Source: Escherichia coli (GTDB taxonomy: Bacteria > Pseudomonadota > Gammaproteobacteria > Enterobacterales > Enterobacteriaceae). From it: a stretch of DNA of 64,000 nucleotides. A model generated the notes under the pieces. The model was not told the origin of the DNA and made no database searches. It worked only from the letters and a program-made list of their open reading frames with translations. The translations under genes were made by a program, and so were the position numbers. Location: assembly GCF_048403405.1 (NCBI RefSeq), contig NZ_CP183129.1; one strand, 5' to 3'. Below are positions 57,005 through 61,378 of the stretch, one piece after another (position 1 is the first letter of the stretch; each line of letters opens with the position of its first letter).

Positions 57005-57763
57005 TTATGCCTGATGTAAAATAGTTAATACTGTGCGCAAATCATTTACCGAGATTTGCCCTGGTGCAGAGGCCTTTTTTACCGCACCAAAAGTTGCCGC
57101 CGAGCCAAATACTTCACCAGCCAGACGAGAAATTACGCCAGTTTTTGCCATTGACATCGTGATGATTGGACGATCGGCATACTGCTCCTGCATCTCCAGG
57201 GTCGCGGCAAGCAACGTCAGCACATCGCTGGTACTTTGCGGCATCAGCGCAATCTTAGGAATATCGGCGTCGAAGGACTGCATTTTGCGCAGACGGGCAA
57301 TGATTTCTTCGGCTTCCGGCGTTTTATGGAAGTCATGGTTGGACATGACAACTTTCACATCATGCGCGTGGGCGTAGGCGACGGTTTCTTTAACCTGATC
57401 ATCGCCGGTAAATAACTCCAGATCGATCATATCAACCAGGCCGCTGTCGATGGCTGCACGATTGAGTGCAATATAAGCCTCGGTGGAAATCGCCTGCTCG
57501 CCGCCTTCTTTGGCACTGCGGAAGGTAAACAGCAGCGGTTTTTCTGGCATGGTTTCACGGAGAATTTTTGCCGCCGCCATGACAGAATCCACATTGGAGA
57601 GGTCGGCATAGTGGTCAACACGCCATTCCAGAATATCAAAGTCCGCTTCACGATAGGCGAGAGCTTCAGATTTCACGCTGGCGATATCTTTCGCCATCAG
57701 CGAGACGATGATTTTAGGTGCGCCCGTACCAATGACGAGATCTTTTACAGTTACGGTTTTCAT
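57005..57763 (-). CDS. aroD: 3-dehydroquinate dehydratase (type I)
   Basis: 252-aa ORF. Confidence 0.95.
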
Positions 57764-57793
57764 TTTTTACCCTTTCTGCACGCGGTCAGCCTG

Positions 57794-58660
57794 TCAGGCA
57801 CCGAACCCCATGACCTGTTTAACATATTCCAGAGGGAAATCTTTGCCAGTCCATAACGTGAACTGTTCAGCCCCTTGCCACAACAACATGCCGTATCCAT
57901 CAATCGTTTTGCAACCAGCTTGTTGCGCCTGCTGCAATAACTTCGTCATATGCGGGTTATACACGCATTCAGTGACCAGAAGTCCCGGATGTAACAGACT
58001 GATATCATTAACCAATGATTCATTCTCAAGGGGTTTCATACCCACTTTTGTGCCATTGGTTAAAATGTCGGCGGAAGCCAGGGCTTCAGCAAAGGCTTGC
58101 TGATCGGCGAGATCGGTAACCGTGACGACACAATCGGTGTTTTCGTTAACCCGCTGCGCGAAGGCGAGGGCTTTATCGAAGAACTCATCCCGACGGTTAA
58201 AGAGTTTAATTTCTTTTAAACCTTCAATTGCCCCCTGCGCGCCAATCGCCGTTGAGGCACCTCCGGCCCCTAACAGCACCATCGTTTTGCCTTTGATATC
58301 AAAACCGCTCTCTTTAATGGCGCGAATATGGCCCGTGCCGTCGGTGTTATAGCCACGCAGATAGCCATCATCATTAACGATGGTGTTGATGGCACCCACC
58401 AGTTTGGCCGCTGGCGTTAATTCATCAACATATTCACACGCCAGTTGTTTGTTCGGCATTGATACACCAGTTCCGCGCATTTTGAGGGCTTTTAATCCTT
58501 CAATTGCTCCGGGAAAACTATCGTTATCCACTTCAAAAGCCATATAGGTAAATGGCAATCCCGCTTTTTCTAAGGCTTTATTCTGCATTTCAGGCGATAA
58601 ACTGTGGCGGATGGGATATGCCATCAGCCCAATCAATTCGTATTTTGCGGTAACATCCAT
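57794..58660 (-). CDS. ydiB: Quinate/shikimate dehydrogenase (NAD(P)-dependent)
   Basis: 288-aa ORF, AroE paralogue with Rossmann motif (GAGGAS). Confidence 0.95.
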
Positions 58661-58671
58661 AATTAACTCCT

Positions 58672-59937
58672 TTAACCTCTATGCTTAATTGTGTTTAACC
58701 GGGTGCTAAATTTACGCTCGCCAAACCGCACATCATTTTCAGGAATAATGAAAACGCGGTAATAGCGGATAAAGACAATAATTGCGGTAATCAGGGCCAG
58801 CAGCGCGAAAGTAAAATCGAGAGCAATGATATATTGCAGGCCGATGTTCGACAGATAACCGGTAATCAGCGGAATAACAAAATTAGCCAGTCCACCCATC
58901 ATCATATATATACTGGTGACTTTGGCTTTGCTTTTTGGGAAAAACTCTGACATGACCGAAACGCCGAGCTGTAAAATGCCGCCAGCTGCTGAGAAACCGA
59001 TAACAAAGGCTCCGGCATTACACACCAATGGAGAAGGGTACAGGTAGATAATGGCAGCTGTTATTGTTGCCAGTGCAGAGTTAAATACATTAGCCCAGAT
59101 GGGCCGGACCATTTTTTTCAGCAGTGCGGCAAAAATAAAGACACAGACCAACGAGCCCATACTGTAATAAGAGATGGTTTTTAATGCCTCAGCTTCTGAC
59201 ATACCAGCAAAAGCCATCGCATATTTGGGCATCCACACCACAATCACATAAAAGGTCGAGAATGCGGCTACACCGAACAGTACTGATGAAACACCTTCCA
59301 GCCAGACTAACGGTTTGCTGTTCATTTGCGGTAATTCATTAGCTACGCTGGCGTCCACCAACTGGCTGGGGAATTTGCTTTTCAACAGCATCAGTGTGAT
59401 CAGTACAAACAGAATACCCGGAATAATCAGCCCATAGCCGTACCAGATGTTATTGAGCAACATATAGCTCACCAGCATTGGGTAGAACATTTGCCCGAAT
59501 GACACCATCGCTTTAACCAGTATGACCGCCGAACCAGAGGCTTTCGGAAAGCATTCCATGAGCGCGGGGTAGCCACCCGTATCCAGCGCTGAGTTAGCGA
59601 TACCTACGCACACTGCCAGACAGTAGGCGAGAGTTAAATTCGGGCAAGCGGGAATACCAAAGAAGAATAGCAGATACATTATTACTGCCATTAATATCAC
59701 CGCCCGACGACCAAACTTATCGGAGATCACACCGAAGAATAAAATACTGATCAATCGCCCCAAACCGATACCGGAAATTAAATAGGCAATGCCCGCGTTG
59801 TCAGTGGAAAACTTTTCTGCCAGAGATGACATATTTTGGGCAAGCGTAATAACACTAATGCCGTGCAGGAAATAGCTGAAGTAAATACAAAGAACAGCCA
59901 GGATAAATGGCGTGCTGAAAGCCTTATTTTGAGACAT
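58672..59937 (-). CDS. ydiN: MFS-family transporter
   Basis: I chose the ATG giving [16 protein letters not shown]... (421 aa); the track starts 2 codons upstream. Confidence 0.85.
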
Positions 59938-60163
59938 TTTCACAGCTCCTTGCTGAAAGATAATTTCGTTACCGTACGTATTGTTCTCCGACGGTTCACA
60001 TAATTACTATACTGAAGATGATTTTCCCTGGGTACATGGCATAAAGTTTATGTTTCCAGGAATATTGCATGTCATAGTTTGTTTTTTATCGCGATTTTCG
60101 TTAGTTGGCGCAGAAAGAGTTATTTATCCGTAAGATCTTGCATGACCTGAAAAGAATATTGCA

Positions 60164-61378
60164 TTACCCACCCGGAGCGACATTTTCCTTTAGCGAGTGA
60201 TGCCGCGTTTCTTTGCGGCTGCGTAAGCCGATAAACAGTGCCAGTAAAAAGCCGATGGCAGCGATGGCGGTATCGAACCACATAATATCGGCAATACTTC
60301 TTTGGGACAGATGAGCCGTAATCAACGGAATAGTAAAGGTCGCAATACTGCCCGCACTGTAATAGATCCCTGTAGCTTTACCTTTAGCGTAGGGGAAACG
60401 TTCAGCCATTAATGTCAGGCCAATTTGCACAACACCTCCAGCAGAGGTAAAACCAATGACAAAAGCAAATATTATCACCACATAAAATGTGGGATGCAGG
60501 CAGACGGTAAACAGAGCAGTAAATGAGATAAAGGTGTACAGCATGAGTAATGTTGTTGCTCGAACGGTATTACGAATGAGTGGAGCGGTAATAAATACAC
60601 AAAGCAGCGAACCCACGGTGTAGATACTGAGTAGTTTGATCGACATAGTGTATGACATGCCTGCAACAAATTGTCCGTACTGTGCCAGCCACTGGCTAAC
60701 CAGATAAAACGTTGCCATTGAGATATAGCCATATAAGGTATAACTGGCTAAATCGATTATTGAGCAGCGATGTTCCGTAGAGCTGGTGGTTTTCTTTATG
60801 ACAGGTAAGCGACGACCCGGATGGGGTGGGAACGTACAACGGTATAAAAACAGAGCGTTAATAAACATAATGCCTGCGGCAATCATAAAGGACCAACCGA
60901 ACCACAGTTCAGCCCACACTAACAGGCTAATGATTAGCGGTAATAAAAATTGCCCGCTGGAAACAAATGCTTTAATTAAAATATTGGCTGTACCCGGTGA
61001 GCGTGGAAAAGCTTCCATCAAACTGGGATAGGTGCCTGCATCGAGAAAACTGTTTGCCATTCCCGCCAGAAAGCCAAAAACATAAGCGATAATGATGTTA
61101 TTGGTGTGCAGGATGCCAAAAAAGAAGGCCATATAGCAACACATCCCGAGCATGATAAAAGGGCGGCGACCAAAGCGATCGGATAATAATCCTGCAAAAA
61201 GCAAGACACTTAATCGACCAATACCCAGCGATGAGATAACTATTGAGACGCCTGCGGCATTAGTCTGCCAAAGCGTCTCCAGCGAGGCCATATTCAGGCT
61301 CATCAAAATGACGCCCATACCATGCACCAGGTAATTAAAATACAACCCCAGTGCGGTAGGGAAATAGGGATTTTTCAT
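60164..61378 (-). CDS. ydiM: MFS-family transporter
   Basis: 404-aa polytopic membrane ORF. Confidence 0.85.
   Translation of the reverse strand: MKNPYFPTALGLYFNYLVHGMGVILMSLNMASLETLWQTNAAGVSIVISSLGIGRLSVLLFAGLLSDRFGRRPFIMLGMCCYMAFFFGILHTNNIIIAYVFGFLAGMANSFLDAGTYPSLMEAFPRSPGTANILIKAFVSSGQFLLPLIISLLVWAELWFGWSFMIAAGIMFINALFLYRCTFPPHPGRRLPVIKKTTSSTEHRCSIIDLASYTLYGYISMATFYLVSQWLAQYGQFVAGMSYTMSIKLLSIYTVGSLLCVFITAPLIRNTVRATTLLMLYTFISFTALFTVCLHPTFYVVIIFAFVIGFTSAGGVVQIGLTLMAERFPYAKGKATGIYYSAGSIATFTIPLITAHLSQRSIADIMWFDTAIAAIGFLLALFIGLRSRKETRHHSLKENVAPGG

Follow-up and report, generated by a model that had tools for sequence, protein, structure and literature searches.

Within a 64,000-nucleotide stretch of Escherichia coli DNA (assembly GCF_048403405.1, contig NZ_CP183129.1; hereafter the window), the genes ydiM, ydiN, ydiB and aroD lie side by side on the minus strand. 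We propose, at a probability of roughly two in three, that the membrane proteins YdiM and YdiN transport hydroaromatic carboxylates and that this transport is coupled to interconversion by YdiB and AroD. Hydroaromatic substrates and at least some inward transport are inferred from the gene neighborhoods of homologues across bacteria, the QuiR-type regulators found there, a catabolic context in Telmatospirillum, and shikimate kinase genes next to carriers in several relatives. YdiM and YdiN would act by proton-coupled transport of shikimate, quinate and possibly 3-dehydroshikimate. In the cytoplasm, YdiB and AroD would interconvert quinate, 3-dehydroquinate, 3-dehydroshikimate and shikimate, with AroD doubling as the biosynthetic dehydroquinase.

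The idea that YdiM and YdiN are hydroaromatic carriers is already known, having been proposed in 2006, 2009 and 2023. As summarized in a review (PMC4585142), Johansson and Liden (2006) found ydiN, ydiB and aroD co-upregulated under carbon limitation and proposed that YdiN carries shikimate or aromatic by-products, serving as an exporter of the by-products. Hu et al. (2009, PMC2672614) predicted from operon rearrangements that YdiN, YdiL and YdiM form a functional module with aro genes. A study from 2023 (PMC10588857) found that about 75% (75-86%) of YdiM/YdiN homologues adjoin a shikimate-pathway gene. In shikimate production strains, ydiN has been deleted along with shiA to stop shikimate re-uptake, and the shikimate yield was 1.3-fold higher on ydiN deletion (PMC8788726). 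The first-pass annotation of this DNA had likewise read the cluster as an uptake and conversion module; its hydroaromatic link is strengthened by cross-phylum synteny, QuiR regulators, the Telmatospirillum locus and the ydiN deletion yield, but the hypothesis had already been published.

Four genes of the E. coli core genome

Open reading frames (ORFs), annotation and profile matches identify all four genes. aroD (57005-57763, minus strand) encodes a type I 3-dehydroquinate dehydratase of 252 amino acids that scores 260 bits with PF01487 and, over its full length, 291.9 bits with TIGR01093 (cut-off 139.3). ydiB (57794-58660, minus strand) encodes an NAD(P)-dependent quinate/shikimate dehydrogenase of 288 amino acids, which matches the equivalog model NF009390 at 669.9 bits (cut-off 349) over residues 1-288 of 288. 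The candidate hydroaromatic carboxylate carrier gene ydiN (58672-59937, minus strand; 421 amino acids) is annotated from an ATG, which places the gene boundary at 59937, and its mechanical ORF begins at a GTG at 59943. ydiM (60164-61378, minus strand; 404 amino acids) encodes a paralogue of YdiN with 36% identity. Both products are carriers of the major facilitator superfamily (MFS) with 12 transmembrane helices: YdiM scores 120 bits and YdiN 114 bits with PF07690 (MFS_1; cut-off 33.4), and the AlphaFold model of YdiN (pLDDT 81.8) features 12 long helices arranged 6+6 and split by a loop at residues 185-210. This model replaced a Kyte-Doolittle helix count, in which the helices were fragmented and which proved unusable.

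The gaps between the genes measure 11 nt (ydiN-ydiB), 30 nt (ydiB-aroD) and 226 nt (ydiM-ydiN). The first-pass description of two 12-helix MFS genes upstream of ydiB and aroD on one strand, at gaps of 11 and 30 nt, is therefore confirmed in its coordinates, gaps and families. Of 5426 complete E. coli genomes, 5425 matched the region 56500-62000 and 5323 contained 80% or more of it; the cluster of ydiL (frameshifted in the window) and ydiM followed by ydiN-ydiB-aroD is a core-genome feature of E. coli. AroD is the sole biosynthetic dehydroquinase of E. coli, so the role of the cluster would be dual rather than non-biosynthetic. The earlier suggestion that these genes are not purely biosynthetic is supported by the catabolic context in Telmatospirillum, but has to be narrowed to such a dual role in view of the biosynthetic duty of aroD.

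Synteny with hydroaromatic enzymes across bacteria

To define the gene neighborhood of the carriers, diverse family members were aligned, one genome per species was scanned, and 79 loci (L numbers below) were annotated by tblastn with reference proteins. They comprise 38 loci from 18 genera outside Enterobacterales and 41 loci from 15 genera within the order; genes were counted within 5 kb of a carrier. A YdiB-family dehydrogenase is encoded at 34 of the 38 loci outside Enterobacterales (16 genera) and a type I dehydroquinase at 26, with each present at 39/41 loci within the order. The association of carriers with YdiB/AroD genes spans Proteobacteria and Firmicutes and is beyond chance. Conservation of synteny had been named as a check on the module proposal, and it holds: both ydiB and aroD stand near a carrier at 39 of the 41 Enterobacterales loci and are also common outside the order. 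QuiR-like LysR regulators accompany 29/38 loci outside Enterobacterales and 13/41 (7 genera) within. An enoate reductase is encoded at 19/38 (8 genera) and 0/41 loci, respectively, and YdiF at 3/38 and 39/41.

Individual neighborhoods point to import. In Telmatospirillum, a homologue with 52% identity lies beside genes for a TetR regulator, a type II dehydroquinase, a shikimate dehydrogenase, a fused dehydroshikimate-dehydratase-like protein and a chemoreceptor; this context is catabolic and therefore implies import. A shikimate kinase gene adjoins carriers in Brenneria, Symbiopectobacterium, Prodigiosinella, Orbaceae and locus L011, which represents a salvage context.

Some database records call for caution. 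Two gene calls are fusions, of YdiN to YdiB (668 aa, P0007) and of a Shikimate_dh N-terminal domain to YdiF (651 aa, P0212); both are probably frameshift or assembly artefacts, yet they are consistent with tight adjacency of the genes. A contig labelled 'Martelella alba', an alphaproteobacterium (L047), carries an Enterobacterales-type ydi cluster with 62-91% identity to E. coli, and a locus labelled 'Serratia marcescens' (L036) has the gene order of a Symbiopectobacterium locus at nearly the same coordinates. Contamination or mislabelling is possible in both cases.

QuiR orthologues in relatives of E. coli

QuiR is an activator that depends on shikimate. The LysR regulators of Brenneria and Carnobacterium score about 230 bits against Listeria QuiR (PDB 5TED), and the next LysR protein about 84 bits; judged by this similarity, the census regulators are orthologous to QuiR. 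In Yersinia, Brenneria, Dickeya, Symbiopectobacterium and Prodigiosinella, the QuiR orthologue is encoded divergently between ydiM and ydiN (for example L002 4340-5242 and L035 8127-9026), and in some of these QuiR-bearing relatives ydiL is followed by a shikimate kinase gene. Both genes are missing from the Escherichia, Citrobacter, Kosakonia and Intestinirhabdus loci. A tblastn search of the window for remnants of quiR or a shikimate kinase gene, including the ydiM-ydiN spacer (59938-60163), returned none, and Yersinia quiR had no blastn match in any of the 5,426 E. coli genomes. Expression of the cluster in E. coli therefore probably depends on another factor.

The closest described systems are the Listeria qui1/qui2 operons controlled by QuiR (Lmo0488) and the clusters for quinate-shikimate utilization (qui/qsu) in Acinetobacter, Pseudomonas and Corynebacterium, which likewise combine a transporter with a YdiB-type dehydrogenase and a dehydroquinase. 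A divergent QuiR orthologue links them to Firmicutes and to the E. coli relatives Yersinia, Brenneria and Dickeya, but not to E. coli itself. The E. coli locus further differs in that its dehydroquinase is of the housekeeping type I and that no dehydroshikimate dehydratase is encoded: a QuiC1-like query matched only Telmatospirillum loci and not the E. coli locus (L001). The locus thus provides no route to protocatechuate. A paper on Gilliamella was set aside because it deals with QuiA only.

Probable transcription units and a repeated cis-element

ydiN, ydiB and aroD are probably co-transcribed as one unit, separate from ydiL-ydiM, given the gaps of 11 and 30 nt and the lack of a terminator between these genes. 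The 226-nt spacer between ydiM and ydiN (59938-60163, minus strand) is, by sequence and conservation, a candidate regulated ydiN promoter. It contains direct repeats of TGCAA(T/G)AT at 60156-60163, 60135-60142 and 60062-60069, followed by a conserved TATAGT-like element. An alignment of the spacer from eight Enterobacteriaceae and Serratia revealed three conserved TGCAA(T/G/A)AT direct repeats: repeat 1 abuts the ydiM stop codon, repeat 2 follows exactly 21 nt downstream, and repeat 3 lies another ~70-95 nt further, before the TATAGT-like element. The pair spaced by 21 nt occurs upstream of ydiN in 13 of 13 representative genomes, Sutterella included. We conclude that transcription of ydiN-ydiB-aroD seems to start at a regulated promoter within this spacer. 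Because a conserved promoter/operator region separates ydiM from ydiN, the four genes are probably not a single transcription unit.

The same motif recurs in the ydiP-ydiQ spacer (52831-53145, minus strand), where two TGCAAGATTGT boxes lie in ydiQ orientation at 53022-53029 and 52949-52956; at least two boxes in this orientation were found in all 12 ydiP-ydiQ spacers examined. Motif density amounts to 3.9/kb upstream of ydiN and 3.4/kb in the ydiP-ydiQ spacer versus 0.116/kb in the rest of the loci, an enrichment of about 30-fold. Direct repeats at a spacing of 21 bp are typical of AraC-family activators. An AraC-family regulator, YdiP, is encoded nearby (53146-54057, plus strand; identified by ORF, annotation and profile), and its gene is conserved in Enterobacterales clusters and also found beside MFS genes at L006 and L013. 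The occurrence of the same direct repeats, with AraC-like spacing, in both the ydiN promoter and the ydiP-ydiQ spacer makes YdiP the candidate binder. It follows that ydiN-ydiB-aroD and ydiQRST probably share a regulator.

Other searches for regulatory signals gave little. A promoter and terminator scan yielded fewer promoter-like sites than shuffled sequences did; on the gene strand, the ydiM-ydiN spacer had none of them. Terminator-like matches lying within coding sequence were disregarded. At a permissive E-value, the only Rfam match across 56000-62600 was RprA, and the scan placed no riboswitch or leader before ydiN or before ydiM. A CRP site upstream of ydiN, noted by eye, was rejected, as it consists of a TGTGA half-site with a poor second half.

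The flanks of the cluster bear on its limits. In an identical strain, the annotated gene order is ydiK, rprA, ydiL, ydiM, ydiN, ydiB, aroD, ydiF, ydiO, ydiP (opposite strand), ydiQ, ydiR, ydiS. The small RNA RprA and its terminator (61968-62075, minus strand; Rfam 118.5 bits) lie directly upstream of ydiL, so that the terminator insulates ydiL-ydiM from ydiK. ydiL (61477-61833, minus strand), which heads the cluster at 38 of the 41 Enterobacterales loci, encodes an Aca2/YdiL-like helix-turn-helix protein; its intact copy scores 203 bits with PF08965. The window contains no ORF of at least 80 aa for this gene: comparison with strain 746 in three frames revealed a 1-nt gap, one A missing from an A7 run near 61654-61660, which truncates the product to ~65 aa versus 118 aa in other strains. 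Either ydiL is a true pseudogene here or the missing A reflects a sequencing error in the homopolymer. At the other end, a G+C-rich hairpin (56967-56994, minus strand) lies just past the aroD stop codon. Its minus-strand tail is A-rich, not U-rich, and read-through into ydiF is therefore possible. One more shikimate-pathway gene is found in the neighborhood, aroH, for the Trp-sensitive DAHP synthase (42967-44013, minus strand); it lies on the same strand ~13 kb from aroD, past ppsR, ppsA and fadK.

Adjacent CoA and electron-transfer genes

Downstream of aroD, the window encodes a set of proteins resembling the Cai/Fix carnitine system of E. coli, and we propose these genes as an extension of the module. 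ydiF (55265-56860, minus strand) encodes a fused family I CoA-transferase (PF01144), and ydiO (54100-55251, minus strand) an acyl-CoA dehydrogenase (ACAD)/enoyl-CoA reductase (NF008997, 787 bits) that is a paralogue of CaiA, its second-best NCBIfam match at 452 bits. Beyond ydiP, the genes ydiQ-ydiR-ydiS-ydiT-fadK (47770-52830, minus strand) encode, by ORFs and NCBIfam matches, the beta and alpha subunits of an electron-transfer flavoprotein (ETF), an ETF-quinone-oxidoreductase-like protein, a ferredoxin-like protein and an acyl-CoA ligase. Second-best NCBIfam matches are FixA for YdiQ (325 bits), FixB for YdiR (321 bits) and FixC for YdiS (642 bits), and the sole match of YdiT is FixX at 144 bits, below the cut-off of 166. 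A CaiA-like reductase, FixABCX-like proteins, a CoA-transferase and a ligase are thus encoded together, as paralogues and not as equivalogs of the Cai/Fix proteins. For FadK (47770-49470, minus strand), the cyclohexanecarboxylate-CoA ligase model ranks second with a score of 424 bits, which falls short of the cut-off, and the crotonobetaine/carnitine-CoA ligase model gives 243 bits. YdiO also matches a cyclohexane-1-carbonyl-CoA dehydrogenase model at 186 bits. These cyclohexane-type matches of FadK and YdiO are weak hints that the substrates may be alicyclic acids.

Throughout Enterobacterales, the genes from ydiF to fadK are contiguous with ydiB and aroD, although contiguity alone is explicable by common descent. 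More telling are loci in which the gene sets co-occur in rearranged orders. L013, whose rpsF-priB-rpsR-rplI context suggests a proteobacterium, has the order AraC-MFS-MFS-ydiF-ydiO-ETFbeta-ETFalpha-ydiB-aroD. L094, which encodes a YeeX/DUF496 protein, has SDH-ydiF-ydiO-ApbA-VOC, followed further on by SDH and MFS. In Sutterella (L010), fadK-ydiTSRQ is divergent from ydiN-ydiB-aroD-ydiF-ydiO. In Sporolactobacillus sp. (L082), ACAD-ETF-FixC-FixX and a QuiR-like LysR gene accompany ACAD-ETF-like-ydiB-aroD-MFS-MFS and, further on, a FadK-like ligase, with a CoA-transferase of another family. A reverse search from YdiF homologues (60-76% identity) showed that four of five contexts hold shikimate dehydrogenase/dehydroquinase genes or MFS genes. 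The fifth, in Cloacibacillus (60% identity), has no shikimate dehydrogenase or dehydroquinase gene nearby, indicating that the clade of YdiF-type CoA-transferases as a whole is not exclusively tied to hydroaromatic enzymes. We conclude that the functional unit appears to extend past the four genes into ydiF-ydiO-ydiP-ydiQRST-fadK. The first-pass delimitation of a four-gene module therefore needs redrawing on both sides: ydiN-ydiB-aroD stands as a probable unit, but ydiM lies behind a conserved promoter region and the unit seems to reach into ydiF-fadK.

In most Firmicute loci, a QuiR-controlled operon starts with a gene for a ~690-aa FMN/FAD/FeS enoate reductase, the best PDB matches of which are FadH and NCR. 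The operon (L008 2832-4910; L057-L081; L088) combines a QuiR-like LysR regulator, this FadH/NCR-type enoate reductase, YdiB, MFS and AroD, which suggests an enoate-reducing route for hydroaromatics; a full-text literature search found no paper describing such a QuiR-enoate reductase-YdiB-MFS-AroD operon. Other combinations were seen in anaerobes. Two of them (L096 9001-13082; L097 9001-12989) encode a YdiF-like protein with a MaoC dehydratase, an ApbA-type reductase, a small VOC/glyoxalase-like protein and a type II dehydroquinase, and L098 (9001-11980) encodes a YdiF-like CoA-transferase with MaoC; L097 and L098 also contain TRAP transporters, an SDR and an AP_endonuc_2 protein. These sets may represent an undescribed CoA-dependent pathway for hydroaromatics or cyclitols.

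A possible route of shikimate reduction

The combined observations allow a tentative proposal, which we regard as possible but short of even odds: the 14-kb ydiM/ydiN-ydiB-aroD-ydiF-ydiO-ydiP-ydiQRST-fadK cluster might be a Cai/Fix-like system for the CoA-dependent reduction of shikimate, controlled by YdiP via TGCAA(G/T)AT repeats. Shikimate would be imported, or quinate would be imported and turned into shikimate by YdiB and AroD. YdiF would then form the CoA thioester, with priming by the ligase FadK, and the CaiA-like YdiO would reduce the enoate double bond with electrons delivered via YdiQR/YdiST. Finally, hydroshikimate would leave the cell, perhaps through YdiM or YdiN acting as an exchanger. 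The proposal draws on the rearranged gene sets at L013, L094, L010 and L082, on the four YdiF-seeded contexts with hydroaromatic enzymes, and on the cis-element common to two promoters. It further draws on the FMN/FeS enoate reductase that replaces the ydi genes in the QuiR-controlled operon in 8 of the 18 non-enterobacterial genera, on the resemblance of FadK to cyclohexanecarboxylate-CoA ligase, and on the ability of Sutterella to reduce shikimate.

This ability was described by Little et al. (bioRxiv 10.1101/2022.12.26.521950), who reported that Sutterella wadsworthensis and Eggerthella lenta reduce the shikimate enoate to hydroshikimate with a growth benefit. RNA-seq was presented for E. 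lenta and Holdemania only, and the Sutterella enzyme was left unassigned; in E. lenta, shikimate induces a flavin reductase of the fumarate/urocanate reductase type. The ydi cluster of E. coli recurs in Sutterella: ydiN-ydiB-aroD-ydiF-ydiO and ydiQRST-fadK encode proteins with 63-82% identity to those of E. coli, a second count giving 51-82%, and the TGCAA(G/T)AT boxes are included. Sutterella is a betaproteobacterial gut anaerobe, and the cluster has likely moved horizontally. The two organisms differ in that, to our knowledge, no shikimate-respiring activity is known for E. coli, as opposed to Sutterella and E. lenta.

The parallel with the Cai/Fix system (CaiTABCDE and FixABCX) extends to its logic, in which enoyl-CoA reduction serves as an electron sink. 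CaiA has YdiO as its closest paralogue, and FixABCX has YdiQRST; in each system, a CoA-transferase and a priming ligase are joined by dedicated carriers and by a regulator of AraC or CaiF type. Acetobacterium offers a further parallel in its caffeate respiration genes, carABCDE. In contrast to Cai/Fix, YdiF belongs to family I (PF01144) and CaiB to family III, the ydi carriers are MFS proteins and CaiT is a BCCT antiporter, and the ydi substrate is only proposed.

Three points count against CoA-dependent shikimate reduction. Sutterella also has many flavin reductases of the E. lenta shikimate-induced type. YdiO and FadK were reportedly assigned to anaerobic fatty-acid use in 2003 by Campbell and colleagues. 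Papers mentioning YdiF, as found by full-text search, concern lactyl- and short-chain acyl-CoA only. Separately from these points, the literature search found no paper treating ydiO, ydiF and ydiB together, and of seven papers mentioning 'dihydroshikimate' none deals, by its title and abstract, with quinate or shikimate reduction in bacteria. A mention of '3-hydroshikimate' in an E. coli Nissle preprint was set aside as most likely a slip for 3-dehydroshikimate.

Weighing the explanations

Some properties of the carriers themselves argue against hydroaromatic transport. Neither YdiM nor YdiN reaches any curated transporter subfamily cut-off. With the aromatic acid:H+ symporter model TIGR00895 (cut-off 418), YdiM and YdiN score 37.7 and 43.2 bits in partial, N-terminal matches only; TCDB places the pair as 2.A.1.15.12 and 2.A.1.15.13 in this very family (TC 2.A.1.15), according to PMC10588857. 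The model for ShiA-type metabolite:H+ symporters (TIGR00883; cut-off 443) gives YdiN 24 bits and does not list YdiM. YdiN thus belongs to an MFS subfamily other than that of ShiA, the E. coli shikimate/dehydroshikimate:H+ symporter, with which it shares the superfamily, a presumed overlap in substrate and joint deletion in production strains. The ShiA gene is not clustered with pathway enzymes. In a fold search with YdiN, the 50 best matches listed were all MFS-type transporters with DgoT first, but a substrate reading was abandoned because NorA, sialin, MdfA and G6PT came nearly level with DgoT, so that the search does not discriminate among MFS proteins. A sequence search of the PDB gave no match to YdiN. 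The same side of the balance holds physiological observations. Growth of E. coli K-12 on either quinate or shikimate is not known, and classical work reportedly found that E. coli aro mutants make no use of quinate. Lacking QuiR, E. coli might express the module weakly or be in the course of losing it. The literature search turned up no direct assay of transport by YdiM or YdiN. YdiM has been published to affect isoprenol tolerance, a phenotype unrelated to hydroaromatics, and where deletion of ydiN or ydiB was reported to cause aromatic auxotrophy (PMC2672614), polarity on aroD could be the reason.

That auxotrophy, taken at face value, would fit a narrower explanation, in which quinate or shikimate from plants or microbes is taken up by the carriers solely for salvage through YdiB, AroD and AroK/AroL to chorismate and the aromatic amino acids, and ydiF-fadK are unrelated genes of anaerobic fatty-acid use. 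The biosynthetic role of aroD, the shikimate kinase genes beside carriers in relatives and the reported assignment of YdiO and FadK all agree with it. We nevertheless hold salvage alone to be rather unlikely, as loci outside Enterobacterales (L013, L094, L082) combine ydiF, ydiO and ETF genes with ydiB, aroD and MFS genes in altered order, the ydiN promoter and the ydiP-ydiQ spacer have a cis-element in common, and an enoate reductase occupies the same operon slot in Firmicutes. Export rather than import appears improbable. On this account, YdiM and YdiN would expel excess intermediates or by-products (dehydroshikimate, quinate, gallate) or unrelated toxic compounds, in keeping with the proposal of Johansson and Liden, as relayed by the review, and with a weak similarity of both proteins to multidrug efflux MFS models. 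However, extracellular shikimate rises, and does not fall, on ydiN deletion (PMC8788726), and homologues occur in inducible catabolic or utilization contexts with QuiR, dehydroshikimate dehydratase and a chemoreceptor. Both views, export and import, could hold if the carriers exchanged substrate for product.

Least probable of all, in our assessment, is a role of YdiM, and perhaps YdiN, in metal homeostasis or respiratory-chain biogenesis, such as copper supply to the bo3 oxidase, with only an indirect link to shikimate. The study behind this possibility (PMC10588857) reported that an active bo3 quinol oxidase requires ydiM, that Cu uptake changes when the gene is lost, and that YdiM has conserved Met residues, findings that also weigh against hydroaromatic transport. 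Yet the same study calls the Cu link unclear and itself places most homologues beside shikimate-pathway genes, in agreement with our census. Ubiquinone and enterobactin are shikimate-derived and could explain the respiratory and metal phenotypes indirectly. On balance, we favor transport of hydroaromatic carboxylates by YdiM and YdiN.

Implications for enteric and gut bacteria

For the two orphan E. coli transporters, the present finding restates a hypothesis, and its main use is as a reminder that a direct transport assay is unpublished. The adjacent genes ydiF, ydiO, ydiQRST and fadK have so far been tentatively tied to anaerobic fatty-acid use. If CoA-dependent shikimate reduction were true, they would gain a physiological substrate, and E. 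coli and Sutterella would possess a cytoplasmic, CoA-dependent shikimate respiration or electron sink. The cluster would then provide candidate genes for shikimate respiration in Sutterella, and by-product formation and shikimate loss in industrial strains would be explained. For Enterobacteriaceae in the gut, it would constitute a plant-derived dietary electron sink.

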